From contig CP066686.1 in assembly GCA_016432365.1 (NCBI GenBank), positions 1,002,918 through 1,066,917 of the forward strand: a stretch of DNA of 64,000 nucleotides. The letters run 5' to 3'. This document shows positions 3,426 through 64,000 of this stretch, piece by piece. The stretch is from Candidatus Woesebacteria bacterium. GTDB lineage: Bacteria; Patescibacteriota; Microgenomatia; UBA8517. Made by a program: the position numbers and the translations under genes. The notes under the pieces were generated by a model, which did no database searches, was not told the origin of the DNA, and saw only the letters and a program-made list of their open reading frames with translations. Positions within the stretch are counted from its first letter, which is position 1. Each line of letters begins with the position of its first letter.

Positions 3426-3893
3426 TTAATCAAAAGTAACTGTAGTCTGTTGAATTAAGTTTATCCCGTCGATAGCAGCCTGAATTATGTAAACTCCCGT
3501 AAAAGACGCGGAGGAAATATCAAACGTCGCCCTTCCTTGAGCATCTGTAACGGGCTGGACTTCTGCAACCTGCAATGAATTACCTCCTCCGACAACAACT
3601 TTTTTACCGGATATTCCCAAACCCCGGTTATCTAAAATGAAAACGGTAATTCTAATCTTTTCTCCACCCGTTTTAGCTCTTAGAGGTGAAGCAAATATAT
3701 ACGAATTTTCCAAAGATAGACTCTGAACACCACGGGACTCTGTAACCGTAGACGAAGAAAACGCAGAGCTTCTAAATATAAGAGGACTTCGTATTGAAAA
3801 TAAAATAACAATTAGCGCAATAAGTAAGATAACAATTATGATAAGGGTGTAAACTGCATACCTTGGCCACCTGGGCGATCTGTCTTCGTTCAT
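3426..3893 (-). CDS. Small membrane-anchored protein with Ig-like (Big_1/invasin-like) domain
   Basis: N-terminal TM YTLIIIVILLIALIVILF. C-terminal VVVGGGNSLQVAEVQPVTDAQGRATFDISS...YIIQAAIDG resembles bacterial Ig-like domains. Confidence 0.4.
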   Translation of the reverse strand: MNEDRSPRWPRYAVYTLIIIVILLIALIVILFSIRSPLIFRSSAFSSSTVTESRGVQSLSLENSYIFASPLRAKTGGEKIRITVFILDNRGLGISGKKVVVGGGNSLQVAEVQPVTDAQGRATFDISSASFTGVYIIQAAIDGINLIQQTTVTFD

Positions 3894-40494: not shown

Positions 40495-41610
40495 TTAACG
40501 GGTAACCAGAGTGGTCAAATCGAGCAAAAGCTCGTTGCCTGAAACAAAGACCACCTGGATGTGAACACCTTTGCACCCCATAGGTACCGAACAATTGGCA
40601 CCTGCATTCTGCAGATTGGGAGGATTCAACGCGGAATTCAGGTTCATCATGGTGTTGGCACCATGACTGGTTAAGGCCCAAATAGCCATATCCAACGCGT
40701 TCCCGTTGAAATAGCGGGCATGCAGTCTGAATCCTTGTCCAAAGACACCGGTGAAATCGGAGGTTACACCGCCGACGTTCACGATCACGAGCATGCAACC
40801 GATTCGTGTGCCGCTTTCCTTACAGGAACCGATATTCGGAATGTCGTAATCTCCCGAAAAGTAAAAGTAGTGTTCAGCTGCGACCGGTATACGACAAGCT
40901 TCCCCCGCCAATTGCTGGCAGAAGTTGGACTCGTCCATGGCCGATTCCAGCCCGTCCGGAACTTGATTACCGTTAATTACACGGAACTCCGGAACCAACG
41001 GGTTGGGAACATTCGGAAACGTAGGCCAAAGCTCCGGGGCAACTTTCCGCAGGTTCCATTTGCTGGTGCTCTGCCGGAAAGTAGTACCGTCACCGCGGTT
41101 CTTATCTGCCCCAGCAAGCCAGGTGACCTTCCAATCAGCTGATTTAATCTGGCTCGGTACCGCAGTCGCTGTCGGCAAGACAACCGGTGTCGGCGTAGGC
41201 AACACAGGTGTTGCAGTTGGTGGTACAAATGTGGCAGTAGGCAATGCCGCGGGAACATCGTTCACGAGCGGAGGGACTTGGTATTCCACATCATTGTAAA
41301 ATAGACGTGTGATATCCCAGTATTTATCGGCGCCGCAAACCAACACACTGCCAGTAAACGGAGCCTTTTGGGCACTCCACAAACCAATCGCCCCGACGTC
41401 TCCACACTGTGACATCTTTTCGACGGTAACACCCGCCGGCAAGGGCTGTAAAACCGGAGCATCTGCATCCGCGAGTGGTTTGGCCTTTGGTCTGAAAAAC
41501 AAAAAGACCAGAATCAGACCAAGTATAAACGCCGTCCCCACAATAGTCAGCAACAAGTTGCGGACCTGGTTTGGATTGGAGTTTGAATACCAATTCCATA
41601 TACGTGTCAT
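40495..41610 (-). CDS. Secreted/anchored protein with Pro/Thr-rich linker and Cys-containing C-domain (start reassigned to internal Met)
   Basis: AAGGAGGTG Shine-Dalgarno sequence precedes MTRIWNW. The upstream part of ORF 40495..41670 contains a terminator hairpin. TM, then PTATPVLPTPTPVVLPTATAVP linker. Confidence 0.45.
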   Translation of the reverse strand: MTRIWNWYSNSNPNQVRNLLLTIVGTAFILGLILVFLFFRPKAKPLADADAPVLQPLPAGVTVEKMSQCGDVGAIGLWSAQKAPFTGSVLVCGADKYWDITRLFYNDVEYQVPPLVNDVPAALPTATFVPPTATPVLPTPTPVVLPTATAVPSQIKSADWKVTWLAGADKNRGDGTTFRQSTSKWNLRKVAPELWPTFPNVPNPLVPEFRVINGNQVPDGLESAMDESNFCQQLAGEACRIPVAAEHYFYFSGDYDIPNIGSCKESGTRIGCMLVIVNVGGVTSDFTGVFGQGFRLHARYFNGNALDMAIWALTSHGANTMMNLNSALNPPNLQNAGANCSVPMGCKGVHIQVVFVSGNELLLDLTTLVTR

Positions 41611-41641
41611 TTTGCACCTCCTTAGATGCGTAGTTGTAAAT

Positions 41642-41665
41642 ACAAAAAATTCTCTGGCCAGAGAA
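41642..41665 (-). terminator. Rho-independent terminator for the sortase-substrate gene
   Basis: Minus strand reads TTCTCTGGCCAGAGAA (perfect palindrome) followed by TTTTTTGT. Confidence 0.45.
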
Positions 41666-41684
41666 CTCATCTAACGATGAGAGT

Positions 41685-41716
41685 CTAGATACTAGATACT
41701 AGATACTAGATACTAG
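41685..41716. repeat. CTAGATA heptamer tandem repeat, about 4.6 copies
   Basis: ctagatactagatactagatactagatactag read directly. Confidence 0.6.
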
Positions 41717-41827
41717 TCCCCAGAATCTCACCGTCAGGAGTAAAAAGCCAGAATTTTGCCTCGATTTGTTAAAGTACCCTTCGACTACGCTCAGGGTTAT
41801 AACCCTCGCAAAAAAAGAGAGCCACCC

Positions 41828-42079
41828 TTAAACGCGTGAAGCCTTAAATCTTTTAGAAAGTATCACAGTAAAAACTGAAGCACCAAGAAGTCCAAGGCCG
41901 ATCAAACCCCAATTATCACCCAAGCCTGTCTCTACCGGAACATGAGTTTTAACTCCACAAACTACACCTCCCCCGTAAGGTTGGGGGCAAATGACGTTTT
42001 CATCCTCCGCGAGAACTACATTGGCCAATAGCGAAAAGCTAATTGTGAATAATGCAAAAGCCAAAAATAATTTCTTCAT
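41828..42079 (-). CDS. Minimal sortase substrate: signal peptide, short mature region, VPVETG motif, hydrophobic helix, KRFKASRV tail
   Basis: MKKLFLAFALFTISFSLLANVVLA signal. ...HVPVETG-LGDNWGLIGLGLLGASVFTVIL-SKRFKASRV has the classic tripartite sorting-signal layout. Directly downstream of the sortase gene. Confidence 0.5.
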   Translation of the reverse strand: MKKLFLAFALFTISFSLLANVVLAEDENVICPQPYGGGVVCGVKTHVPVETGLGDNWGLIGLGLLGASVFTVILSKRFKASRV

Positions 42080-42127
42080 AATTATCCGGCTATTTTATCT
42101 TATGAAACTTGGGTTGTCAACATTACA

Positions 42128-42154
42128 GGACATGTACCAGTCGGTACATGTTCC
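42128..42154. promoter_or_regulatory. Near-perfect 27-bp palindrome GGACATGTACC-AGTCG-GTACATGTTCC (copy 1), candidate operator
   Basis: Lies between the sortase and its substrate gene. Same half-sites recur at 62033..62061. Confidence 0.35.
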
Positions 42155-42178
42155 ACTTGTCAGGCTGTACATGTTTCG

Positions 42179-52897: not shown

Positions 52898-52919
52898 TTC
52901 TATTTCAAGGTATTGTTCT

Positions 52920-53035
52920 GGCGATGAGATATTTTCGCGGTAGGTTGCCCCACAACTATCGTCTCCGCTGACCCGTTTCACTTCTGTGTTCGGAAAGGGA
53001 ACAGGTGGTACCAGGTCGCACAAATCACCAGAACA
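52920..53035 (-). rRNA. rrf: 5S ribosomal RNA
   Basis: Reverse complement matches the conserved 5S core: CGTTTCACTTCTGTGTTCGG...AGGTGG...CCAGG. Confidence 0.7.
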
Positions 53036-53289
53036 ATAACTTGAAAACAGAATTTAATTTTCTTGCAAGAAAATTAAACCTGGTTCTCTAATTTTTCAGA
53101 AGAAAAATTAGCAAATATCTTTTTTTAAGAAAAAGGCCGCGTCCCACTTATGTGAGGGATCGCAAGAAATCGACCAATTCGCATTAGTAGCCTTAATCCC
53201 TTACGGGACTTCCAGCGCTAACCGATTAACCCGATATTCTGTCGGGGGTCTAACGATACTTTCGTATCAGGAATCCTAATCTCGGAGGC

Positions 53290-53322
<33 letters not shown>

Positions 53323-53500
53323 GTTGGGAATGTAGCTACCCGGCGTTACTGCTGATGCAATAACCGGCACACCAGGGATTCCCCCAGGGAGGTCCTCTCG
53401 TACTGTCCCCAGCTCTCCTCAAGATTCCAACGCTTCTACAGGATAGAGTCCGACATAATTGTTTTAAACCCTGAACACACTCCTGTGTTTCAGGGACCTA

Positions 53501-53974
53501 CGATCGCTCGTAGGATCCGACTATATCTTTCCCTCATAGCCCTTTAGGGCGACGTGGGATTTGGCGTATAGTCTGTGAGGATTCCATAATAAAATCAAAA
53601 ATTAAAAATCAAATATCAAAAATGCAGATTGGAACTTTTGTCCCAATATTTACTTTTTAATATTTTATATTTGATATCACTATGGTCTTTCCTGCTGATT
53701 GTCCGCAGTTGCGCATTTTTACCACTTTTTAAATGGTAGTGCAACATACACCGGATTTTCCAGCAAATAGTCCCACTTCACTCTTCCGAGTTTCGTGGGA
53801 GCCGCCGTAGCCTTTCAGCGTAGGTGGCCCAAATTTATTTCCTGAACTGGTATCAGGATTCTATAGGTATAACAAAATATACTAAACCTCTACTTTCTAG
53901 TAAAAACTAGAAATGATTCACAACGTTGTATAGAAAGACAGCTTAGATTGTCAGCACAATATGTTAATGTGCTC
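53501..53974 (-). mobile_element. About 470-nt insertion in 23S at the conserved ...GTCGTGAGACAGTT | (T)AGGTCCCT junction: putative ORF-less group I intron
   Basis: Flanking exon sequences are contiguous in E. coli and Bacillus 23S. Upstream exon ends in T, and the insertion ends in G. Contains an AT-rich hairpin-like segment at 53575..53700. No ORF of 60 aa or more. Confidence 0.4.
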
Positions 53975-54009
<35 letters not shown>

Positions 54010-54477
54010 TCACTTTAACGGGCGAACAGACCGACCCTTGGCACCTTCTTCAGCGCCAGGATGTGATGAGCCGACATCGAGGTAGCGAACCGCGCCGTCG
54101 CTATGGACGCTCGGGCGCGACTACTCTGTTATCCCCGGGGTAGCTTTTATCCATTAAGCTCCGTGCACACCCATTGTGCATCGGAGGATCATTAAGACCT
54201 AGTTTCCTACCTGCGCGGGATGTATCCCTTGCAGTCAAGCTGGCTTAAACCTTTGCGCTTTACCCACCGTTTCCATCGGTGGAAAGCCAACCTTTGTGTC
54301 CCTGCGTTACATTTTGGCAGGGTACCGCCCCAGTAAAACTGCCCAGCAAACACGTTTCCCCTCGCCGTCTCCAGGCGAGTAAAGTAAGCTTCACATTTTC
54401 CAACGAGTGGTATTACATATTATGACGAATCTCCCACCTATTCTAGACAATCAAAAAATATGAAAGCAATGTCTACT

Positions 54478-54508
<31 letters not shown>

Positions 54509-55481
54509 ATGTAGAAGTAGGCCGCGTCTTCACAGCCATCGCTATTTCGCCGAGTAAACTCTCAAGACAGTTGCTAGCTCGTTACGCTATTCATGCGGGC
54601 CAGAACTCACCTGGCAAGGAACTTCGCTACCTTAGAACAGTTATAGTTACTGCTGCCGTTCACCGGAGCTTCAATTCAGAGCAATTCATCTTGCGACAAG
54701 CCACCCCTCTTCTTAACTTACCGGCACTGGACAAGCGTCAGCCCGTATACTTCGACTTTCGTCTTTGCACGGACCTGTGTTTTTGGTAAACAGTCGACTA
54801 GCAAACTTTCGGTGCCCCCCTCATAGCCTTACGGCGACGTGGGGAACCCATCTCCCAAAGTTACGGATAGTTTTTTTGCCGAGTTCCTTGAGAATTTGTC
54901 TCTCGATCACCTTAGGGTACTCCCCCAGTTCACCTGTGTCGGTTTGCGGTACGGCTTAGTTTGACTCTCGCTGCGAACCTTTTCCTGCAAACTGAAACGT
55001 TCAGAATCCCCCATCTCGCGACAGAGTTTACATGACTGCTCGATTAAACATACTGCGGGATTTTCCACACAATACTGTCTTGCAGCTTGAACCCAAATTC
55101 AATAATGGGCCCTGATTTTCCAATTTGGTCAATCCCCAGCTTATCCTTGCGGATTTTTCGATTCAAACCAAATAGTAGAATTTTGACTACTCTTCCATCG
55201 ACTACGCCAATATGGCCTCGCCTTAGGTACCGACTAACCCACTGTGAACGAATCTTGCAGTGGAAACCTTGAACATTCGGTGCTACCGATTCTCACGGTA
55301 ATTGTGCGCTACTCAAGCCGACATTCTCACTCCCGACCGCTCCACCATGTCTTACAACACAGCTTCACCGCTGTCGGAACGCTCCCCTACCACTCCGTCA
55401 TAATAAATTATGACAAAATTTCTAGCTTCGGCATACAACTTATCCTCGATAAATCTTGGGCGCACGCGCCCTAATCGACCA

Positions 55482-55538
<57 letters not shown>

Positions 55539-56104
55539 TTTCGGACACGTACTTCCTTTTAAACTTAGTTGTAATTTAGAGGCCTTAGCTGAAAATCTGG
55601 GTTGTTTCCCTTTCGACATATCAGCTTAGCCCGATATGTCTGTCTAGTATGATAATTAACGTTAGTATTCGGAGTTTAATTGAGTTGAATTGCTTGCGCT
55701 CTCCAACCCATCTAGTGCTCTACAGCCAACATAACTTTACATACCACGGTCCCTATAGACCTTTCGGGGAGAACCAGCTATCTCCAGGTTCGTTAGGTAT
55801 ATTGCCACTAACCACAAGTCGTCCCATGTCATTGCAACGACAACGGGTTCGGGCTTCCACAGATATTTCTATCTCCTTCACCCTGCTCATGGTTAGCTCA
55901 CCTGGTTTCGGGTCTGATCTAATTTTCTTTTCGCCTTTTAAGACTTGGTTTCCCTACGCCTCCCCAAATAACTTGGTTAGACTAGAAAATTAAAACAACT
56001 CGCCGGCTCATTCTTCAATAGGCACGATATCATCCTTTTAAGGGGACTCTATCGGATTGTTCGCAAACAGTTTCAGGTTCTATTTCATTGAGTGTTTCAC
56101 TCAG

Positions 56105-56141
<37 letters not shown>

Positions 56142-56330
56142 CTCTCTCATCTTATTTAGTCTTGGAGGATGGTTCCCCCCGTTTCCCACAGAATATGTGT
56201 TCCGTGGTACTTAGGAAATCCCTAGAGGCAAAATTAGTTTAATATACGAGGCTTTCACTCTCTGTGGCCGGCAATTCCATACCGTTCTACTACCAATTTT
56301 ACTCTCACATCGGGCTCCTGCAACCCCCCC

Positions 56331-56467
56331 ATGCACAGCACACGGAAATCAAAAGTTAAAATTTAAAAATCAAAAATACAAGTTAAAATTCAAAAGTTTT
56401 TATTTTTACTTTTGAATTGCACTTTTGCATTATGACTTTTGCTTTTTGAATTCCTTGTGCTGTGCAC
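56331..56467 (-). repeat. AT-rich hairpin insertion/expansion in 23S domain I, bounded by ATGCACAGCACA / TGTGCTGTGCAC inverted repeat
   Basis: The 107-bp A/T-rich core is homologous to the intergenic element at 32781..32893. Confidence 0.45.
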
Positions 56468-56481
56468 AAAGGTTTAGACTG

Positions 56482-56513
<32 letters not shown>

Positions 56514-56861
56514 TCGCTTGATTTATATTCCTCGCCCTACTGAGATGTTTCAGTTCGGGCGGTTCCCACATTAGCCTTTATAACATTCCTTGCGGAACAC
56601 ATTTGGAGGCTAAGTTTCCAGCAAAGCTGGAAGGGTTTCCCCATTCGGACACCGTCGGATCAATGGATCGTGGCTCCTACCCGACGACTATCGTGACCAT
56701 GTACGTCCTTTTTCGGAGATGAGAAGCAAGGCATTCACTGTCTGCGTTTCTTACTCTTGCGATCCCACACATCTCTTGCACATCAAGAGATTGGGACGCG
56801 ACCTTCTTCTTAAAAAAATATTTTCAAATTTTAACGTTCTATTTTCCGCCGCTAGACGGAT

Positions 56862-56910
56862 CAGTGCGGACTTAGTAGGAATCGAACCTACTTGTATAAC
56901 CATAAAATCC
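56862..56910 (-). other. tRNA-like fragment (acceptor plus T-arm only) in the rRNA spacer
   Basis: Reverse complement reads GGATTTT-ATGGTTATACAA-GTAGG-TTCGATT-CCTAC-TAAGTCC. Intact T-arm, no D or anticodon arms. Sits where tRNA-Ile usually lies. Confidence 0.25.
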
Positions 56911-56936: not shown

Positions 56937-57010
56937 TGGACCCGGGCGGAGTCGAACCGCCTGCCTCCTCATTGCAAATGAGGTGTTCAAGCCAGGTAAA
57001 CTGCGGGCCC
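56937..57010 (-). tRNA. tRNA-Ala (anticodon UGC), rRNA-operon spacer tRNA
   Basis: Reverse complement reads GGGCCCG...CCTCA-TTTGCAA-TGAGG...GGCGG-TTCGACT-CCGCC-CGGGTCC-A with G3:U70. Confidence 0.8.
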
Positions 57011-57574: not shown

Positions 57575-57880
57575 TTAATCTCCTTTATACAAACCACTTT
57601 CCTCAATTCTTTTGTCCATCTCCTCTTCAGTCATATTTGTAAACACACGCCATAGAGATTTTAATTGATCTTTCTCCATCGTCGGCACCACTTCTGCTTC
57701 GGTTCCATCTTCGATGATTTTAGCTAAACAAGGAATCCCTCCTTCTTTTAGATGCTTAATCAGTTCCTCCCCTATAGCCTCTGCCATTACGGCGGCTTCA
57801 AATAAATCGGGTTGATAACCGATCTGATCTTCAACCATCTCTCCCACCTCTTGAGCGGTAACGGGTCGCCATTTTTCCAT
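57575..57880 (-). CDS. Small acidic hypothetical protein
   Basis: 101-aa ORF. Confidence 0.35.
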   Translation of the reverse strand: MEKWRPVTAQEVGEMVEDQIGYQPDLFEAAVMAEAIGEELIKHLKEGGIPCLAKIIEDGTEAEVVPTMEKDQLKSLWRVFTNMTEEEMDKRIEESGLYKGD

Positions 57881-57991
57881 AGAGTGGATTGTAAGTCACA
57901 TTGCACTATGGGTCAAGTTCTAAGGTTCATCCCAACCACCAACGCAAGACACGGTCCTTAAAGGTGTATATAGTTTTTCCGGAAGATGAAG

Positions 57992-58222
57992 CTAATCCAA
58001 AACCAGGTTTTTTTGGATTTTGACCACTTTCTTTTCCAAATCTTCAAATTCTTCAACGGTTGGTGCATCATCTTCAAGTCTCGCTATCTGAAGCCCCAAT
58101 TTGTCAATTCTTTTATCGACTTCGTCAAACCTTAGGCCTACACTCTTAAAACCCTCCCTCAGTTCCTTTTTAATTGAGGTTTGGCCATCTAAAAGCAGTT
58201 GGAGCATTTTTGCATCACTCAT
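57992..58222 (-). CDS. Small coiled-coil hypothetical protein
   Basis: 76 aa. Confidence 0.35.
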   Translation of the reverse strand: MSDAKMLQLLLDGQTSIKKELREGFKSVGLRFDEVDKRIDKLGLQIARLEDDAPTVEEFEDLEKKVVKIQKNLVLD

Positions 58223-58261
58223 ATTTCCATTATTGCATTACAACTTTTAAAGTCAAGCCAA

Positions 58262-58304
58262 CAAAAAAGGCGGGGCCTAATCAAAATGATTTTGGCGCCC
58301 GCCT
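58262..58304 (-). terminator. Conserved intrinsic terminator T1 (family of four)
   Basis: Minus strand reads GGCGGGCGCCAAAATCATTTTGATTAGGCCCCGCC followed by T7-8, directly after the stop of 58343..58864. Confidence 0.6.
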
Positions 58305-58342
58305 GGTTTACTTTAAAACTTTCTTTTTCCTGCAAGACCTTG

Positions 58343-58864
58343 CTACTCATTACAGTCCGGTACTTTAAACCGTGTCTCAAATCCAACTGTTGAATCCGGA
58401 CTCATTAGGGCGCGAAGTGTGTAAACACCCTCGGAAAAGTCCTCAGGAATGCCTGTGATAGCATCTGTCATTCCACCCTTAAGGACAAAGTTGTCCGCTG
58501 TGTCTTTGATGTACGCCAGAAAAGTGACGAACCCATGGGAAGACTCCACCACTAAATAGTAATTTCTCAATTCCGGCGGAAGATTTGTAATTATAACCAG
58601 CGCGATCTGCTGATATGGGTTTACACTGGAATACACACAGGACACCGTAATTTGTGGGCTGGCGACCCGATCAGAGTTTTGAGTAACTGCGGCTTCTGTG
58701 GAATTTCCATTGACAATAACTACGTCATACTCCACATAGGCGGATTCGCTTACAACTTCTTGTCGTGTTGTCTGCCCACCTGCAAACAGGACTATCAAGA
58801 TGGCAGCTAAAAATAACACCGTCAAGATTAACAGTCTATTTAAAATGCTAGAGTTCATGTTCAC
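58343..58864 (-). CDS. Small N-terminally anchored extracytoplasmic protein (array unit A, gene 4)
   Basis: TM LLILTVLFLAAILIVLFAG. Preceded by hairpin/Shine-Dalgarno element H1 and followed by T1. Confidence 0.5.
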   Translation of the reverse strand: MNMNSSILNRLLILTVLFLAAILIVLFAGGQTTRQEVVSESAYVEYDVVIVNGNSTEAAVTQNSDRVASPQITVSCVYSSVNPYQQIALVIITNLPPELRNYYLVVESSHGFVTFLAYIKDTADNFVLKGGMTDAITGIPEDFSEGVYTLRALMSPDSTVGFETRFKVPDCNE

Positions 58865-58942
58865 TCCTTCCGAGAAATTTGATTAGGAGCAGAATCCTTG
58901 CTTGGTAACTTACCAGCAGTCAAGGCCTTGCTCCTGAAAGTG
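58865..58942 (-). repeat. Intercistronic hairpin plus Shine-Dalgarno element H1
   Basis: Fills the whole gap from the stop of 58943..59482 to the next ATG. Terminal inverted repeat GGAGCA..TGCTCC encloses CAAGGCCTTG and TTGGTAAxTTACCAA palindromes. GGAAGGAG lies 7 nt before the ATG. Confidence 0.55.
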
Positions 58943-59482
58943 TTATTGGTACACACACCCCTCAGGCGTTACAGAACTATAGAACTCGTAGATATACACC
59001 GGGCCCACAATTGATGGCAATGCGCTCATCCCGTATGCGAAAAGGCAAAACTTCGCGTTCTGTGGTGCCAGGCGGACCCAAATTTTATCGGGTTTAAGGC
59101 CTGCCGGCGGCTCATAGGCTGTCAGTAAATCTCCGTCTGCGTTGAGGAAATAGATCGTCGAATCTTCAGACGCTCTATACCAATTCGAGTCCGAACGTTG
59201 GTGACTCGTCTGATAACTCACGATCTTTCCGTTGTGGAATTGCAATTCAACATAGACAAAAACCGGCAGATCGTACTCAGCCCCCAATTCGACCAAGGCT
59301 TCGTCTTCGGTCAAGATAAACGCTGCCTCAGGAGGTAATTGTGCCAAGGCACCTTGCCACCTGGCTATCATTTCGAGGTCTTTGATCTGATCAGAGCGGA
59401 CGCTCAAATCAGCAAGAACCAAAATGACCGACAAAAACAATGTTCCAATTGCGATCTTAGTGATAGATACGCCTTTGTTCAT
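58943..59482 (-). CDS. Small N-terminally anchored extracytoplasmic protein, paralog of 61210..61752
   Basis: TM IAIGTLFLSVILVLADL. Similar length and motifs (W..L.Q.P, YL.P) to the unit B first gene. Confidence 0.5.
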   Translation of the reverse strand: MNKGVSITKIAIGTLFLSVILVLADLSVRSDQIKDLEMIARWQGALAQLPPEAAFILTEDEALVELGAEYDLPVFVYVELQFHNGKIVSYQTSHQRSDSNWYRASEDSTIYFLNADGDLLTAYEPPAGLKPDKIWVRLAPQNAKFCLFAYGMSALPSIVGPVYIYEFYSSVTPEGCVYQ

Positions 59483-59573
59483 TTTTCCTCCAGAAAAATT
59501 TAAATATTAGGAGCAGAATCCTTGCTTGGTAACTTACCAACAGTCAAGGCCTTGCCCCTTTGAGTTTATTCGA
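59483..59573 (-). repeat. Intercistronic hairpin plus Shine-Dalgarno element H2 (TTTAAATATTAGGAGCAG variant)
   Basis: Same core TTAGGAGCAGAATCCTTGCTTGGTAACTTACCAACAGTCAAGGCCTTGCCCC. Confidence 0.55.
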
Positions 59574-59795
59574 TCACAACTGCCTCAAAATCTCGGCTAC
59601 TTTGTCATTCAAATCAGGTATTTCCAGAGAACTTGCGCTTTCCAACTTTTTATACAGACTTTTTAGTCTGGATACCAAATACAGTCTGTGCAAGATCAGA
59701 AAGATTATAAAACCACCCACTAAAAGAACCGTGGCCAAAAATGGGGTTGCCATTACTTCCCCAAAATCCGGACGATCCAAGAGATGTGCAAACAT
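59574..59795 (-). CDS. Tiny single-pass membrane protein (73 aa)
   Basis: TM FLATVLLVGGFIIFLIL. GGAAGGAGG Shine-Dalgarno sequence upstream. Plus-strand ORF 59560..59883 rejected. Confidence 0.4.
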   Translation of the reverse strand: MFAHLLDRPDFGEVMATPFLATVLLVGGFIIFLILHRLYLVSRLKSLYKKLESASSLEIPDLNDKVAEILRQL

Positions 59796-59871
59796 GAAAG
59801 CCTCCTTCCAATATCACGAACTTCCCGACACGCCGAGCCTCTCGGAGTTGTTCTTGCAAGGCCTTGCCAGA
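59796..59871 (-). repeat. Divergent intercistronic hairpin element (variant)
   Basis: GGCAAGGCCTTGCAAG palindrome plus GGAAGGAGG, at the same relative position as H elements. Confidence 0.3.
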
Positions 59872-60309
59872 TTAAGGTTTTAGAACCTTTTTCAGAGCTT
59901 CGACTCCTGTGATATATTCTGGATTAATTACCAGATCCGGCAAAATCTTTGAAATTTCAACCAATCGTCGATAGCTTTGGAGATAAACTTTCAAATCAGC
60001 CATCATTTCTCCAACAGACATGCTCTCGACAGTAGCTTTGTCACTACTCTTAGCACGAATCGTTTCCATCCTTCGATTGATTTCGTCCCATTCGCGCTTA
60101 AGCCTGATTTCCCGATCTATGCCTATTTTGAAGGCAAGACGTATAAACAAAGCGCACAGGCCCAGCGCTGTTAAACCCAAACCTGCACAAAATATAGCAA
60201 TGCCAAAATGTTTGGTGGAAAGAAAATTTACAACGTTGACCAAACTACCAATTGCGGTCATGAGGGCGAAAAACGCAGCCCCTAACCAAATATAACCACT
60301 TGGTTTCAT
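59872..60309 (-). CDS. Small two-TM membrane protein (array unit A, gene 1)
   Basis: Two hydrophobic helices, then a charged coiled C-terminus. Confidence 0.45.
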   Translation of the reverse strand: MKPSGYIWLGAAFFALMTAIGSLVNVVNFLSTKHFGIAIFCAGLGLTALGLCALFIRLAFKIGIDREIRLKREWDEINRRMETIRAKSSDKATVESMSVGEMMADLKVYLQSYRRLVEISKILPDLVINPEYITGVEALKKVLKP

Positions 60310-60550
60310 TTTTTCTCCTTGAATTTATGGGGTATACAACAAACAGTCCCACATGGGACTGGAAAATAAAGAAAGTTTTAAACGTTAATGTACAGTCGGC
60401 AGGATACCACATTTGAAGCTAAAAGTCAAATACTATAGGGGCGCAGTCCCGCAGCGTATAAGTCTTTAAAATAGCATGCAGACCCCGTATTCACGCTATT
60501 TCGACGCAAACACGCAGTATTTGGGAACAAGTAAGTTCTATGCTGGGGCC
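60310..60550 (-). promoter_or_regulatory. Repeated promoter-leader module A: TTGACT-17-TATCCT plus conserved 5' UTR hairpin CAGTCCCATGTGGGACTG
   Basis: -35 at 60414-60419 and -10 at 60391-60396 (minus strand). About 200 bp homologous to 61753..62035 and 63469..63685. Confidence 0.5.
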
Positions 60551-60593
60551 AAAAAAAAGGCGGGGCCTAATCAAAATGATTTTGGCGCCCGCC
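60551..60593 (-). terminator. Conserved intrinsic terminator T2
   Basis: Same GGCGGGCGCC...GGCCCCGCC-T8 sequence as T1. Confidence 0.6.
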
Positions 60594-60597
60594 AGTA

Positions 60598-60819
60598 CTA
60601 ACCTAGAAACATAAAAACCAACATCAGGATGCCTGAAACAATCGCCACCACTATCATTGTGGGTATGAATACATTCAGCATCTTGTTTACTTTCGATCTC
60701 AGTTGTCGCAACGGTACGCCAGGCATTAAAAGCCTGTATACCAGTGGGGACATGGCAATTCCCAAAACCAGCACCAAGAGGCTGATCCAAAAGATCCAAG
60801 AAAAGATCGTAAGAGCCAT
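60598..60819 (-). CDS. Tiny two-TM membrane protein (73 aa)
   Basis: Hydrophobic throughout. H3 element immediately upstream. Confidence 0.45.
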   Translation of the reverse strand: MALTIFSWIFWISLLVLVLGIAMSPLVYRLLMPGVPLRQLRSKVNKMLNVFIPTMIVVAIVSGILMLVFMFLG

Positions 60820-60901
60820 TTTTTCTCCTTCCGAGAAATTTGATTAGAAGCAGAATCCTTGTGTGGTATGAAAACCATAGTCAAGGCCTTGCCCCATTGA
60901 G
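60820..60901 (-). repeat. Intercistronic hairpin plus Shine-Dalgarno element H3
   Basis: Conserved ends. Apical part changed to TGTGGTATGAAAACCATAG while still self-complementary. Confidence 0.55.
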
Positions 60902-61120
60902 CTACCAATCACGCCGAGCCTTATCGAGCTCTACTTTCAAGGCTGCTTTCAAGGTCGGATCTTGCTCGGCTTCGTATTTTTTTTGCAATTCGATCTTTTT
61001 GTCGGTCGCCTTTATTTGCCCCCGAATGAGACGGAACATGAAAGCGAAAAACAAAATGCCAAAAAAGATGATCGGGTACAGCGGATCACAAAAATCGATT
61101 GATTGTGGGGAAAAGTTCAT
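60902..61120 (-). CDS. Tiny single-pass membrane protein (72 aa) with K/E-rich tail
   Basis: TM IIFFGILFFAFMF. Family with 62813..63013 and 62140..62307. Confidence 0.45.
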   Translation of the reverse strand: MNFSPQSIDFCDPLYPIIFFGILFFAFMFRLIRGQIKATDKKIELQKKYEAEQDPTLKAALKVELDKARRDW

Positions 61121-61209
61121 TTTCTCTCCTTCCGAGAAATTTGATTAGGAGCAGAATCCTTGTGTGGTATGAAAACCATAGTCAAGGCCTTGCCCCATTG
61201 AATAGTCGT
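61121..61209 (-). repeat. Intercistronic hairpin plus Shine-Dalgarno element H4
   Basis: Near-identical to H3. Confidence 0.55.
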
Positions 61210-61752
61210 CTAGAAGTCACAACCGTAACTAAACGATTCCCCTTTTGTCCAAATCTGAACAAAAGTCAATCCGCTTTCAAGACTGTAAGTCTCGACTTTT
61301 ACCACATTACGATACTCACAGTTGGGTACATCGTCGGGACTGAGATAGACAAAAAGATCGTCTGGTCCACCCGACTCAAACTTGTATGACCCAAGAATGT
61401 TTCCATCTTCATCGGCATACCAAAGTCTGCCGGGGATTTTAGCGATGGGCCAAGCCTCTGCCTCAAGGGCGTAGTGGTGCATCGGACTTAGGACTGCGGT
61501 TCCATTGTCGACCACGATCACTTCGTCCGAGTCATTGATAGGGATTTTGTACTTCTGCCCCAACTCGATACTGTCGAGATTTCGAGTCAGAATCATACCC
61601 GAGCCGGTAGGAACTTGATTCAAAAAACTGTTCCACTTAGCCAACTTGTCTAGCTCATATTGCTTGTGCTCCAAGCGGATAAATCCCAAGGATGCAATAA
61701 ACAAAATTGCCGCGGCCAATATCAATGGTAGACTTCCGTTTCGATATTGCAT
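61210..61752 (-). CDS. Small N-terminally anchored extracytoplasmic protein (array unit B, gene 1); start moved to Met-19 of the track ORF
   Basis: The upstream 18 codons of ORF 61210..61806 overlap the conserved leader. GAGAGGAGAAAAC precedes MQYRNG. TM LILAAAILFIASLGF. Confidence 0.5.
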   Translation of the reverse strand: MQYRNGSLPLILAAAILFIASLGFIRLEHKQYELDKLAKWNSFLNQVPTGSGMILTRNLDSIELGQKYKIPINDSDEVIVVDNGTAVLSPMHHYALEAEAWPIAKIPGRLWYADEDGNILGSYKFESGGPDDLFVYLSPDDVPNCEYRNVVKVETYSLESGLTFVQIWTKGESFSYGCDF

Positions 61753-62035
61753 GTTTTCTCCTCTCGAGAATTTGAATAGATTTGATGGATACAACGACAG
61801 CCCCACATGGGACTGAATAAGAAAGTTTAAAGCGTTAAAGTACGAGTAAAATGCCCTTTTTTAGAGCCTGCCATGATACCACATCTGAAGCTAAAAGTCA
61901 AATACTATGGGTACCAGAGCTAAAGCTCATAAGTCTTTAAAATAGCATGCAGACCCCGTATTCACGCTCTTTCGATGCAAACACGTAGTATTTTGAGAGA
62001 AAGTAAGTGTAATACTGGGGTCAAGACTACAGGAC
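61753..62035 (-). promoter_or_regulatory. Repeated promoter-leader module B: TTGACT-17-TATCAT plus conserved leader hairpin
   Basis: -35 at 61896-61901 and -10 at 61873-61878 (minus strand). Leader contains CAGTCCCATGTGGGGCTG. Upstream about 90 bp are conserved across copies. Confidence 0.55.
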
Positions 62036-62061
62036 ATGTACCAGCCCCGGTACATGTTTCA
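62033..62061. promoter_or_regulatory. Palindrome GGACATGTACC-AGCCCC-GGTACATGTTTC (copy 2) just upstream of promoter module B
   Basis: Same 9-bp half-sites as 42128..42154. Confidence 0.35.
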
Positions 62062-62095
62062 CTCCACCGGCAGGTACAAGCTTCATTCTACCAAA

Positions 62096-62139
62096 AAAAA
62101 GGCGGGGCCTAATCAAAATGATTTTGGCGCCCGCCTGGT
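62096..62139 (-). terminator. Conserved intrinsic terminator T3
   Basis: Identical core to T1 and T2. Abuts the stop codon at 62140. Confidence 0.6.
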
Positions 62140-62307
62140 TTACTTTGAAACTTTCTTTGAATCTGGTTTGTATAACCTGTCCAGGTCAATATGGATTTTT
62201 TCCAGAGTGTCATTAATCACTCTCAACCATGAACATATCATACTGGCACCAACCACGATGCCAAAAAAAATGACCAAACCAGCGATGATTAGACCGACAA
62301 TCTCCAT
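62140..62307 (-). CDS. Tiny single-pass membrane protein (55 aa; below ORF-track cutoff)
   Basis: Minus-strand translation is MEIVGLIIAGLVIFFGIVVGASMICSWLRVINDTLEKIHIDLDRLYKPDSKKVSK. Preceded by H5 and followed by T3. Confidence 0.45.
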   Translation of the reverse strand: MEIVGLIIAGLVIFFGIVVGASMICSWLRVINDTLEKIHIDLDRLYKPDSKKVSK

Positions 62308-62410
62308 TCTTCCTCCTTCGGAAAGAATTTAAATATTAGGAGCAGAATCCTTGCTTGGTAACTTACCAACAGTCAAGGCCTTGCCCATATGAGTCCAGTT
62401 GACAGCCTGA
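62308..62410 (-). repeat. Intercistronic hairpin plus Shine-Dalgarno element H5
   Basis: TTTAAATATTAGGAGCAGAATCCTTGCTTGGTAACTTACCAACAGTCAAGGCCTTGCCC variant. Confidence 0.55.
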
Positions 62411-62734
62411 TCAATCCTGAATTTCGATGTATATCGGCCTGTCAAAATCAAATGGTTTCAACACCGTTTCGATACCAAACAAGGACAGTGTATCAAAAAG
62501 GACAACCTTGTACGGATCGCCTACTTCGATAACCGCAATCAGTTGATTGTTGTCATCTTTGATTGCGACCAGATATGAACCATCGTGACCTGGAATTGAA
62601 AGTGTGTGTCCGGTTTCGGCCACCTCGGCATGCCAATCGAAAGATTTCAGCAGCCTTCCGGCTTGTCTCAGGTAATCGACCAATATAAACCTTTTGGTCA
62701 GGCGACCTATACGTCGAACGTAGAATGTAGCCAT
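62411..62734 (-). CDS. Small soluble protein ending ...IYIEIQD, paralog of 63741..63983
   Basis: Shared VAETG/VAETD and C-terminal (F/Y)IEIQ motifs with the unit D gene. Confidence 0.45.
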   Translation of the reverse strand: MATFYVRRIGRLTKRFILVDYLRQAGRLLKSFDWHAEVAETGHTLSIPGHDGSYLVAIKDDNNQLIAVIEVGDPYKVVLFDTLSLFGIETVLKPFDFDRPIYIEIQD

Positions 62735-62812
62735 TTTTTCTCCTTCCGAGAAATTTGATTAGGAGCAGAATCCTTGCGCTCTAAAGCTTTCAAGGCCTGC
62801 TCCTAAAAAGGT
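62735..62812 (-). repeat. Intercistronic hairpin plus Shine-Dalgarno element H6
   Basis: Perfect terminal inverted repeat TTAGGAGCAG...CTGCTCCTAA. Middle replaced by a GCGCTCTAAAGCTTTCAAGG palindrome. Confidence 0.55.
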
Positions 62813-63013
62813 TTATGTTTTTGCACGAGCCTCATCAAGGCTTTTTTGAATATCTTTCCGCGCCGTCTCTCCAGCTTTCTCAAGCTGTGATTCCAACCGT
62901 GGAATCACAATGAATTTCAAATAAATTTGATAGCCGAAAACCGAAAAGACCAGGAGAGTTCCCAATACAGCCATGATCATAAAGACTGGGGCCATTGCTT
63001 CGTCAAATCCCAT
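62813..63013 (-). CDS. Tiny single-pass membrane protein (66 aa) with K/E-rich tail
   Basis: TM VFMIMAVLGTLLVFSVFGY. Confidence 0.45.
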   Translation of the reverse strand: MGFDEAMAPVFMIMAVLGTLLVFSVFGYQIYLKFIVIPRLESQLEKAGETARKDIQKSLDEARAKT

Positions 63014-63099
63014 TCTTCCTCCTTTGGAAAGAATTGAATGTTAGGAGCAGAGACCTTGCTTGGTTTAAACCAACAGTCAAGGCCTGCTCCTATGATTGT
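63014..63099 (-). repeat. Intercistronic hairpin plus Shine-Dalgarno element H7
   Basis: TAGGAGCAGAGACCTTGCTTGGTTTAAACCAACAGTCAAGGCCTGCTCCTA. Apex GGTTTAAACC keeps the palindrome. Confidence 0.55.
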
Positions 63100-63468
63100 C
63101 TATTTCATGATCTGCCCGTACGGAATGGGGTCAAACCAGTCGAGGCTGTAAAAACCCGTGTGACCATCCATGAACAACACCTTTGCGACATTTTCGTGAA
63201 TCGAAAGAATCACGACCGGTTCGCCCGGGGTGTAGACATACTCGCCCAGATATTCCTGCGTAGGATTCTGGGTTTCAGCCAAGGCTGAACTTACATACAC
63301 AGTTTGGCCAACCACGGGCTCAAAAATCGGTAGGTCAATACCAGACCCGACCTTGAAGCCGATGTTAAGGCTGACGATGCCAACGATGGTCATCACCAAC
63401 CCGGCGAAGACGAACATGACCAACTGATTGCGCAATTTAATGCCTGGATCTTCAAATTGAATTTCCAT
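63100..63468 (-). CDS. Small N-terminally anchored extracytoplasmic protein (array unit C, gene 1)
   Basis: TM LVMFVFAGLVMTIVGIVSL. Preceded by promoter-leader module C. Confidence 0.5.
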   Translation of the reverse strand: MEIQFEDPGIKLRNQLVMFVFAGLVMTIVGIVSLNIGFKVGSGIDLPIFEPVVGQTVYVSSALAETQNPTQEYLGEYVYTPGEPVVILSIHENVAKVLFMDGHTGFYSLDWFDPIPYGQIMK

Positions 63469-63685
63469 TACTTATTCTCCTTTGAATTTTGAATTTGATG
63501 GATACGGTAACAGCCCCACATGGGACTGATAAATAAAGAAAGTTTAAAGCGTTAAAGTACGAGTAAAATGCCCTTTTTTAGAGCCTGCCATAATACCACA
63601 TCTGAAGCTAAAAGTCAAGTTATAGGGTATCCCAGTTCCCCCAAATTGTTTCTTGGAGCCAAAAAATTGGCATATATTTTTTAAA
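63469..63685 (-). promoter_or_regulatory. Repeated promoter-leader module C: TTGACT-17-TATTAT plus conserved leader hairpin
   Basis: -35 at 63613-63618 and -10 at 63590-63595 (minus strand). Leader with CAGTCCCATGTGGGGCTG. Confidence 0.55.
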
Positions 63686-63734
63686 ATAAAAAAGGCAGGC
63701 ACCTAACCACAAAAATGTGATTTTGGCGCCCGCC
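63686..63734 (-). terminator. Conserved intrinsic terminator T4 (variant left arm GGCAGGCACC)
   Basis: Same loop CAAAAATGTGATTTTG-like palindrome and A/T run. Follows the stop of 63741..63983. Confidence 0.5.
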
Positions 63735-63740
63735 TAGTAC

Positions 63741-63983
63741 TTACTGAATCTCAATGAAAACCACCCTATTGGACAACAGTCCCTCGACCATATCCACAAT
63801 GAACCGGTGTGCCGATGTGTCAAACAACAAGATCTTGAATGGCTGATCCTCAGGGATAGCTGCAATCAACTTGCCCTCTTTTGTCTTGATTGTCAACGAC
63901 AACGGTCTATCCGTTTCGGCAACCCGAATGGAATCTCTGAATCCGTCTTTTTGGATCTCATAACCGGGAAACAGCCAGGTCAA
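63741..63983 (-). CDS. Small soluble protein ending ...VFIEIQ (array unit D)
   Basis: Paralog of 62411..62734. Confidence 0.45.
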   Translation of the reverse strand: MTWLFPGYEIQKDGFRDSIRVAETDRPLSLTIKTKEGKLIAAIPEDQPFKILLFDTSAHRFIVDMVEGLLSNRVVFIEIQ

Positions 63984-64000
63984 ACCGAAAATGTGCTCAA

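Follow-up and report, generated by a model that had tools for sequence, protein, structure and literature searches.

Reiterated non-coding modules frame an array of small, predicted membrane-protein genes between the spacer tRNAs of a split rRNA operon in Candidatus Woesebacteria

On its minus strand, the chromosome of a tiny groundwater bacterium, a Candidatus Woesebacteria member of the candidate phyla radiation (CPR), carries an array of small genes framed by non-coding modules that are far more conserved than the genes themselves. The stretch analysed, here called the window, is 64 kb long and contains the array at ~58.2-63.8 kb, with an independent contig of the same genome (L023; 100% identical over a 439-nt overlap and ending inside the promoter-leader module P3) extending the picture upstream. 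Together window and contig hold four co-oriented, predicted transcription units with 13 small genes, which are assembled from three promoter-leader modules, seven hairpin plus Shine-Dalgarno (SD) modules with one additional degenerate scar, and four predicted intrinsic terminators (Table 1). An initial annotation of the window had described not a standard operon but a modular, cassette-like locus, a description borne out by modules that outconserve genes and by the same module subtypes framing mostly different genes in a relative. This relative is the metagenome-assembled genome (MAG) CAZBTH01, labelled 'uncultured Gammaproteobacteria' and obtained from groundwater (PRJNA292723), which is the sole public MAG carrying the modules. 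We give a little better than an even chance to the reading in which the repeat families constitute an RNA-level expression scaffold, kept uniform by selection and by homologous recombination that also shuffles the cassettes.

Repeat finding in the region 56-64 kb returned an intergenic family of six to seven copies, a terminator family of four and promoter/leader families of three, and pattern searches over the whole window placed every module copy on the minus strand at 58.2-63.8 kb with none elsewhere. Copies diverge among themselves, with identities of 79-98%. Gaps between array genes are filled by modules and open reading frames (ORFs) occupy every interval between modules, with 73% of the array being coding and each ORF beginning at an ATG 6-10 nt downstream of a strong SD.

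In the relative the exact 19-mer that marks the intergenic module occurs at only two loci in the whole MAG, a syntenic island between tRNA-Ile and tRNA-Ala (contigs L006, L025-L027) and a second locus (L003, L007) adjoining genes with window homologs at 37.9-42.1 kb, the corresponding site in the window being unoccupied. The search for modules elsewhere that the initial annotation had proposed thus led to a second locus in the relative, with none in the rest of the window and no hairpin copy in the 10 kb upstream, while a metagenome scan added only one short contig, from the same relative. The locus is confined to a very narrow lineage. The two genomes are ~87-90% identical, with 83-90% identity in orthologous coding DNA and 88-97% in the module subtypes (e.g., 97%, 96%, and 96%). 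The backbone genes of the island are kept, including those for a 104-aa protein (86% amino acid and 87% nucleotide identity), a 101-aa protein (79%), a 73-aa protein (92%), and a 91-aa membrane protein (87%). The genes within module-framed units, by contrast with these, have no orthologs in the other genome, being connected only by two distant paralog links (27% identity). Units of the relative instead contain genes for proteins of 178, 89, and 119 aa, a 185-aa paralog and a broken gene, among which lie VapBC (VapC/PIN) and BrnTA (BrnT/CopG) pairs, and the island also carries an AAA ATPase.

All four subtypes of hairpin apex and both subtypes of terminator are present in the two genomes, beside different genes. 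Within the window the terminators T1 and T3 match fully over the stem-loop (100% identity) and one pair of hairpins reaches 98%, and the genes flanking these modules have no detectable similarity at the DNA or protein level in any frame. Traces of recombination consist of truncated hairpins fused directly to a terminator in the relative, and in the window of a deletion scar at ~59.8 kb and a 45-nt copy of the second-locus flank in the spacer between T3 and P2. The sharing of subtypes, the unrelated flanking genes and the scars together demonstrate a turnover of genes through recombination, at the modules or between them, rather than by divergence in place, with the modules held constant. An overprinting relationship between cassettes, in which one would be read out of frame from another, was considered and dropped as tblastx found none.

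The intergenic module is defined by the 19-mer CAAGGATTCTGCTYCTAAT, which occurs seven times, always on the minus strand, between 58.8 and 63.1 kb (0.05 occurrences expected; none of 100 shuffles reached seven). A covariance model of the hairpin with its ribosome-binding site (RBS) recovered the same seven copies at 78.8-98.4 bits and no further copy in the window or in the 10 kb upstream, in keeping with the seven copies initially proposed at internal gene boundaries. The 'variant' that had been counted alongside them was not recognised by the model, and its sequence identifies it as a deletion scar rather than a diverged hairpin. Every copy folds (-24 to -35 kcal/mol) into a basal helix GGAGCA/UGCUCC of 6-8 bp, an internal loop AGG/AUUC, a middle helix CCUUG/CAAGG of 5 bp and an apical stem of which four sequence variants exist, pairing being kept in each; the ends read (T)AGGAGCA and TGCTCCT(A). 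The hairpin keeps a constant spacing to a strong SD and the ATG and is followed on its 3′ side by one of two RBS versions, each able to form a short anti-SD:SD stem.

Folds and strands were compared over 11 closely related hairpin copies from the window and the relative. At least one G.U pair occurs in the sense fold of nine of these, while in seven a recurrent basal-helix A-to-G change, seen as GGGGCA (GGGCA where one stem is truncated), forms G.U in the sense orientation and C.A in the antisense, and the minimum free energy of the sense strand is about equal to or below that of the antisense strand in all 11. This wobble pattern, with the relative stability of the two strands, points to a hairpin that acts on the sense transcript rather than on DNA or on the opposite strand. 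Its use as an intrinsic terminator was rejected, the hairpin having no U-tract and not being flagged as terminator-like.

The promoter-leader module contains a 26-mer found three times in the whole window (60404, 61876, and 63593), within predicted promoters that match the consensus for sigma-70 extended -10 promoters (TTGACA-like -35, 17-nt spacer, TGnTATAAT-like -10). The initial consensus TTGACT-17-TAT(C/T)AT fits P2 (TATCAT) and P3 (TATTAT) but not P1, where the -10 reads TATCCT; a TGn extension is present in each. The invariant leader hairpin CAGTCCCATGTGGGRCTG, with three copies in the whole window, was confirmed as described, while the conserved ~90 bp proposed to lie upstream of all promoters was found at P1 and P2 and not at P3, the module common to all copies beginning at CATAGTAT, ~8 nt before the -35 TTGACT. 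P2 and P3 are 94-95% identical. Beyond the -10 a variable insert of 0 or 21 nt is followed by a conserved AU-rich block (GTACTTTAACGC...CTTTCTT), then by the hairpin (7 bp of GC-rich stem with a 4-nt loop), a U-rich stretch and an SD block at the module end, the leader measuring roughly 80-110 nt from the inferred transcription start site (TSS) to the ATG. The unit at the second locus of the relative has no TTGACT promoter and its homology starts exactly at GTACTTTAACGC. A riboswitch was considered and rejected, the leader being essentially unstructured apart from one hairpin and having no Rfam match.

Two further observations concern this module. With E. coli boxA, which we take to be TGCTCTTTAACAA, the leader block GTACTTTAACGC has CTTTAAC in common; the block stands ~25 nt before the leader hairpin and has no match in Rfam, and an rrn/nut-type site of processive antitermination, bound by NusB-NusE, is noted as a lead only. 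Upstream of P1 and P2 only, a 70-nt block (60453-60522 and 61924-61993) is 93% identical and contains two GCGTG motifs ~21 nt apart, which could form a transcription-factor site.

The terminator core, the 17-mer GGCGGGCGCCAAAATCA, occurs four times in the whole window (58287, 60577, 62119, and 63718). T1-T4 fold at -20.7 to -29 kcal/mol with z-scores of -2.8 to -6.8, are followed by U6-U8 and have an apex that co-varies between copies, all of which predicts textbook intrinsic (Rho-independent) terminators and upholds the four GC-hairpin T-run copies of the initial annotation. The consensus scans and folds are likewise consistent with its three units, each bounded by a TSS and a terminator, except that the gene at 63741 belongs to a fourth unit with a non-module promoter. 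A pre-terminator block, AAAGAAAGTTTTAAAGTAAAC (58306-58326 and 62138-62158), is inverted with respect to the leaders at ~60365-60385, 61820-61843, and 63535-63560, with a 15-nt exact inverted leader match in unit A, and precedes four of seven terminators. Pairing of leader and pre-terminator block across the ends of a transcript, or an invertible unit, was rejected, as the duplex energy was no better than in random windows and the block stands at only four of the seven terminators.

Translation initiation in the array is exceptional for this genome, as an SD of at least 5 nt precedes 13 of 13 array genes vs. four of 34 other window ORFs (Fisher p 2e-8), the start of each comparison ORF being taken as the first in-frame ATG of the longest ORF. 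A -10-like hexamer lies within 20 nt of the ATG in 22 of the 34 non-array ORFs. Non-array genes are mostly SD-less with a TATAAT-like hexamer 5-15 nt before the ATG (for example at ATGs 4442, 22841, 46794, and 48376), which suggests widespread leaderless or SD-less mRNAs in this Woesebacteria genome.

An N-terminal hydrophobic, transmembrane (TM) segment is predicted in 11 of the 13 array proteins, comprising four single-pass proteins of 55-73 aa with charged tails, two proteins with two TM segments and five in which an anchor precedes a domain of 100-160 aa, three of these five having a conserved Cys pair. The two soluble proteins are a pair of paralogs. Paralogy had been claimed for 58943/61210 and 62411/63741, and both pairs stand (27% identity, E 4e-13, and 35%, E 2e-8), while the tiny TM proteins 59574/60902/62140/62813 have architecture alone in common (best E 0.02-0.6). 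Nor are the units similarly ordered and paralogous as had been thought, their contents being 122/66/107/55, 180/72/73, and 145/73/179/171 aa, and no conserved N-termini were found among the proteins. The source record lists every one of them as a hypothetical protein. Searches of Pfam, PHROGs, PADLOC, and PDB sequences returned nothing significant, fold searches likewise, and Rfam gave no match in 57-64 kb at gathering or E<=1 thresholds; the suggested likeness to toxin/immunity or bacteriocin-like loci, and likewise to defence or phage loci, was thus not matched by any family in these collections. 'Surface variation', also suggested, is a reading drawn from predicted membrane anchoring and strain variability.

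For four families, searches against 5.8 billion clustered and 1.84 billion representative proteins found members only in the genome of the window and one relative. A4 has no full-length homolog among the 1.84 billion representative proteins, its sole other match being weak (E 4e-5) and to a repeat of ~30 residues within a protein of 1100 aa. Structural models were of little help, with the AF2 model of C3 reaching a predicted local distance difference test (pLDDT) score of 69 and no fold match, and that of the 180-aa family of B1 scoring 51 and being unusable. A dPPR10 match of C3 (62411) was discarded as a low-information stretch of 26-30 aa.

The island containing the array is bounded upstream by tRNA-Ile(GAU) and downstream by tRNA-Ala(UGC)-23S-5S, all on the same strand, with tRNA-Ile ~1.9 kb upstream of unit D and a distance between the two tRNA genes of ~8.9 kb here vs. 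11.4 kb in the relative. This is the position of the normal 16S-23S spacer, here split and expanded by protein genes. No 16S gene accompanies tRNA-Ala-23S-5S downstream and none lies within 8 kb upstream of tRNA-Ile; unlinked rRNA genes are common in Patescibacteria (bioRxiv 10.1101/705046). The 23S gene scores only 2046 bits against the bacterial model and the 23S-5S spacer (53033-53929) is an unusually long gap of 898 nt with no ORF of at least 50 aa and no Rfam match. Sequences resembling the T-arm/acceptor 3′ half of a tRNA (e.g., GGTTCGACTCCTTGCACACCCA) lie at L023:8075-8100, L023:8180-8203, and window ~56862-56890, directly 3′ of tRNA-Ile and tRNA-Ala, and may be scars of past integration or decayed tRNA genes. 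Upstream of tRNA-Ile (L023:358-7704) a 780-aa TraG/VirD4/HerA-like ATPase is followed by ~13 small opposite-strand genes, which include paralog families (132/143-aa Cys-rich and ~100-aa soluble proteins) and one gene (L023:6243-6527) weakly related to the 104/107-aa family of the array; this cluster is partly conserved in the relative.

How the scaffold would work can be set out from these parts. A near-consensus extended -10 sigma-70 promoter would drive transcription into an AU-rich leader with its invariant GC hairpin, the shared leader permitting co-regulation of the units. The three-helix intercistronic hairpin would block nucleases or be a site of processing, so that the cistron before it keeps a protected 3′ end and the one after it is capped, while the SD block fused to it would secure ribosome binding for internal cistrons in a genome that is mostly SD-less or leaderless, and each unit would be closed by a classical intrinsic terminator. 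The modules would stay alike through purifying selection and through RecA-type homologous recombination or gene conversion acting on the direct repeats, and the same recombination would delete, duplicate and swap the genes that lie between modules, in the array itself, from one locus to the other and probably from strain to strain. The outcome would be a fast turnover of small envelope proteins, for which one may guess at a role in host or phage interaction at the cell surface. The analysis shows the anatomy of the locus, its locality, the pattern of conservation, the turnover of cassettes, the contrast in SD use and the predicted membrane anchoring; we infer where transcription starts and stops, what the hairpin does as RNA, by which pathway recombination proceeds and what the biological role is.

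Several points weigh against this scaffold model. Its TSSs, processing sites and terminations are all predicted, and array-only locality is proven for ~74 kb of a 1.08-Mb genome and, for exact 19-mers, in the MAG of the relative. The leader hairpin is invariant, with no compensatory pairs, and for the intercistronic helices, most positions of which are likewise invariant, covariation is limited to the apical stem and to wobble changes among 11 closely related copies; the small anti-SD:SD stem is also weak. High identity of modules across genomes could reflect recent exchange between lineages instead of constraint. The use of longest-ORF starts may somewhat overestimate the SD-less fraction of the comparison genes, and the higher GC content at third codon positions (GC3) of the array (0.49 vs. 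0.41, p 0.002) would also fit a foreign origin. Finally, no function could be assigned to the array proteins from Pfam, PHROGs, PADLOC, PDB, or fold searches.

Another reading takes the array as a remnant of integrated mobile-element cargo (from a phage, an integrative and conjugative element, or a defence island) at a tRNA hotspot, with 'moron'-like units encoding superinfection-exclusion, defence or toxin-like membrane proteins. This is not exclusive with the scaffold model and we regard it as unlikely. It would account for the location between two tRNA genes with tRNA 3′-half-like fragments nearby, for the VapC/PIN and BrnT/CopG pairs and AAA ATPase of the relative's island, for the TraG/VirD4/HerA-like ATPase and many small genes directly upstream of tRNA-Ile, and for SD-led, higher-GC3 genes unlike the style of the host; an N-terminal anchor with a ~150-aa domain may moreover resemble known exclusion proteins. 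It sits poorly with the lack of PHROG or PADLOC matches, with a viral collection containing neither the hairpin+RBS core nor the promoter module, with an overall GC content of the array equal to that of the genome (0.44), and with the vertical conservation of island backbone genes in the two genomes; neither an integrase nor an attachment repeat was seen. The 18-nt leader palindrome had four single viral-contig matches, of which three comprised a 19-23-nt palindrome only and the fourth was not recovered by BLAST, and these are read as chance.

The modules could also form a CPR-native gene-cassette system, independent of a recombinase or using one not yet known, that is an integron analogue made of RNA-level parts in an rRNA spacer, a proposal to which we attach a similarly low probability. 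An ORF that came to lie between a hairpin+RBS module and its neighbour would be expressed instantly from the standard scaffold of promoter, RBS and terminator, and module-to-module recombination, within the array, between loci or between strains after DNA uptake, would capture and shuffle envelope genes that arose de novo or were acquired.

An integron-analogous system acting on DNA, with the hairpins as folded single-stranded sites for a site-specific recombinase that captures promoterless ORFan cassettes, is still less likely. The outline is attC-like, with co-oriented small orphan ORFs separated by 50-nt imperfect palindromes whose basal and middle helices are conserved, whose internal loop is unpaired and which contain bulged bases and vary at the apex; the content is strain-variable, truncated hairpins are joined to other modules, and the relative has a unit at a second locus that is empty in the window. 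Several observations speak against it. A regular-expression search of both strands of 57-64 kb for RYYYAAC...GTTRRRY core pairs found none (~1.4 expected by chance), the repeat unit takes in the SD with fixed spacing to the ATG, the wobble pattern favours sense RNA, and the array has three promoters and four terminators of its own. No recombinase was found among ten called genes of the 10 kb upstream, several small ones not having been scanned, or among 25 non-array window proteins, and the heterogeneous junctions are those expected of homologous or illegitimate recombination, not of precise site-specific cuts.

A simple tandem operon duplication with fast divergence afterwards, the similarity of modules being a functionless relic of recent duplication, is about as improbable. 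The two paralog pairs suggest it, as do the near-identity of P2 and P3 and of the adjacent 98%-identical hairpins, yet genes beside modules of 98-100% identity have no detectable similarity as DNA or protein, the paralogs that do exist are merely 27-35% identical, gene order differs between units, and between genomes the modules are better conserved than orthologous coding DNA.

A selfish palindromic element inserted repeatedly into intergenic spaces, resembling a miniature inverted-repeat transposable element (MITE) or a repetitive extragenic palindromic (REP) sequence, has a smaller chance again. Elements of this type are known inside operons, and those of the array are imperfect palindromes of short length, of which several copies have 8-bp inverted repeats at their ends (TAGGAGCA...TGCTCCTA). 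Copies, however, occur only in arrays (none in the other 58 kb of the window or the 10 kb upstream, and two loci in the relative's whole MAG), show no visible target-site duplication, have flanks that differ from copy to copy, and always carry the downstream RBS in one orientation. An assembly artefact from misjoined or collapsed repeats, which the initial annotation had named as a refutation, has a negligible chance even though both independent short-read contigs of the window's genome, otherwise matching it 100%, break inside P3 as expected for a true repeat, and is excluded by the divergence among module copies, by the in-frame ORF with its own SD in every interval, and by the modular island of the relative being identical in four independent assemblies from different samples.

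Some further observations concern the relative's two loci and their counterparts in the window. In the relative's island a second small repeat occurs three times (L006:2721-2745, 3741-3765, and 5207-5230) as a palindrome GTGTGACAGGGTCGCACCCTGTCA followed by AAACTATATAC...GTTAAAG, and this tail motif is found once in the window (57922-57976), upstream of the gene at 57575-57880. At the site corresponding to the second locus, a palindrome ACATGTACC-N4-6-GGTACATGT (42105-42165) overlaps the -35 of a small secreted-protein gene (41778-42080), has a copy inside the T3-P2 spacer of the array (62030-62060), and could be an operator. Nearby, a 7-nt tandem repeat TAGATAC (~4.5 copies, 41685-41716) stands directly 5′ of the ATG of the minus-strand gene 40495-41670, with fewer copies at the same place in the relative, and is a possible contingency tract of variable copy number.

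Table 1. Coordinates of the array modules, array genes and island boundaries (window positions unless a contig is named; elements and terminators are predicted)
Feature	Coordinates	Strand	Description
P3	63469..63625	-	Promoter 63590-63618; leader block GTACTTTAACGC...; hairpin 63511-63528; SD
P2	61753..61908	-	TTGACT-17-TATCAT 61873-61901; hairpin 61798-61815
P1	60310..60436	-	TTGACT-17-TATCCT 60401-60429; hairpin 60344-60361; without the 21-nt insert of P2/P3
Copy of second-locus flank (~45 nt)	62015..62075	-	In T3-P2 spacer; compare window 42105-42150 and L007:1439-1461
T4	63686..63740	-	Long GC stem, variable apex, U6; -29 kcal/mol, z -6.8; 96% identical to the relative's L006 Tb
T3	62088..62140	-	Stem-loop 100% identical to T1
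T2	60546..60598	-	Core match and fold
T1	58256..58326	-	Pre-block AAAGAAAGTTTTAAAGTAAAC repeats part of the leader block in inverted orientation
Hairpin+RBS (C1/C2)	63014..63099	-	Apex GGUUuaAACC, RBS version B; -34.7 kcal/mol, z -4.5
Hairpin+RBS (C2/C3)	62735..62812	-	Apex AGCuuuaGCG type, RBS version A; 96% identical to the relative's L007:791-874
Hairpin+RBS (C3/C4)	62308..62410	-	Apex GGUAAgUUACC, RBS version B
Hairpin+RBS (B1/B2)	61121..61209	-	Apex GGUuuucauACC, RBS version A; 98% identical to the copy at 60820..60901
Hairpin+RBS (B2/B3)	60820..60901	-	19-mer and covariance model
Hairpin+RBS (A2/A3)	59483..59573	-	97% identical to the relative's L006:3294-3376
Hairpin+RBS (A3/A4)	58859..58942	-	19-mer, fold and covariance model
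Degenerate junction (A1/A2)	59796..59871	-	5′ 14 nt of hairpin and remnant of a B2-like C-terminus, then SD
Unit D	L023:9573-10242		Upstream 107-aa two-TM gene and 104-aa gene; non-module promoter, ended by T4
Unit D gene 2	63741..64000 (cut by window end)	-	104 aa, soluble, HYV90_05990; full gene in L023
C1	63100..63468	-	122 aa, N-terminal TM and C-terminal beta-rich domain, HYV90_05985, orphan
C2	62813..63013	-	66 aa, one TM and charged tail
C3	62411..62734	-	107 aa, soluble, HYV90_05975, paralog of unit D gene 2
C4	62140..62307	-	55 aa, one TM; last codons and stop inside terminator pre-block
B1	61210..61752	-	180 aa, TM anchor and domain with two conserved Cys, HYV90_05965
B2	60902..61120	-	72 aa, one TM and charged helix
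B3	60598..60819	-	73 aa, two TM; distantly homologous (27%) to the 89-aa gene of the relative
A1	59872..60309	-	145 aa, two TM and coiled-coil-like tail
A2	59574..59795	-	73 aa, one TM and charged tail
A3	58943..59482	-	179 aa, HYV90_05940, paralog of B1
A4	58343..58858	-	171 aa, TM anchor and beta-rich domain with two Cys
tRNA-Ala(UGC)	56937..57010	-	Downstream boundary of island
23S	53930-56761	-	Followed by 5S
5S	52916-53032	-	3′ of 23S
tRNA-Ile(GAU)	L023:7968-8041 (~65.9 kb window-equivalent)	same as array	Upstream boundary of island

CPR bacteria (Patescibacteria) are tiny episymbionts with largely unknown envelope proteins, and their genetics is only beginning. The locus is a clean, testable example of cassette turnover mediated by regulatory modules in such a bacterium and would show small membrane proteins being renewed through recombination among reiterated regulatory modules at a hotspot in a split rRNA operon. 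Its promoter-leader, insulating hairpin+RBS and terminator are natural, presumably strong and portable parts that may serve in the design of genetic tools for a group of organisms whose genes appear to be mostly SD-less or leaderless, and non-coding DNA more conserved than the genes it serves offers a cue for finding similar cassette loci.

Among known systems, integron arrays and clusters of attC sites lacking integron-integrases (CALINs) also consist of co-oriented small, mostly orphan ORFs with boundary palindromes of variable apex and a content that differs between close relatives. The array is unlike these in having no AAC/GTT core sites and no integrase among ten upstream genes and 25 window proteins, and in that its repeat includes the SD, its structure is favoured as sense RNA, and it contains three internal promoters and four terminators. 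With palindrome families such as REP sequences and bacterial interspersed mosaic elements (BIMEs), enterobacterial repetitive intergenic consensus (ERIC), BOX, and Correia elements, the REP of malE-malF being an example, it shares a stable intercistronic hairpin 3′ of a stop codon, with likely protection of the upstream cistron and differential expression in the operon. Members of those families are scattered over whole genomes and have no RBS fused to them, whereas the array copies are confined to one or two loci and always joined to a downstream translation-initiation region. A hairpin directly upstream of a very strong SD recalls the 5′ stabilisers of Gram-positive bacteria (the aprE-type stem-loop with RBS and 'Stab-SD'), and if processing took place at the hairpin each cistron of the array would gain a protected 5′ end in the same way; to our knowledge the known stabilisers are single leaders and not a reiterated intercistronic module.

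Phage morons and tRNA-linked variable islands are likewise made of self-contained units of promoter, gene or genes and terminator in a conserved backbone by tRNA genes, with strain-variable content and, in the relative's version of the array, toxin-antitoxin pairs; the array differs in having no phage or integrase signature and in reusing the same promoter, RBS and terminator sequences in all units. The vsp, vlp, and vsa loci of Mycoplasma are similarly tandem genes for membrane-anchored proteins with 5′ non-coding DNA more conserved than the coding DNA, but the array has no conserved signal peptide, lipobox, invertible sites, recombinase, or homopolymeric promoter tract, its units are all co-oriented and its promoters all look constitutively intact. 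No description of a locus of this kind was found in the literature available to the analysis. Its ingredients, sigma-70 promoters, intrinsic terminators, intercistronic palindromes and tRNA-linked variable islands, are each known; what appears to be new is their combination, a fixed three-module scaffold around unrelated orphan genes that is conserved above the coding DNA, supplies SDs in a genome mostly without them and lies between the spacer tRNAs of a split rRNA operon.

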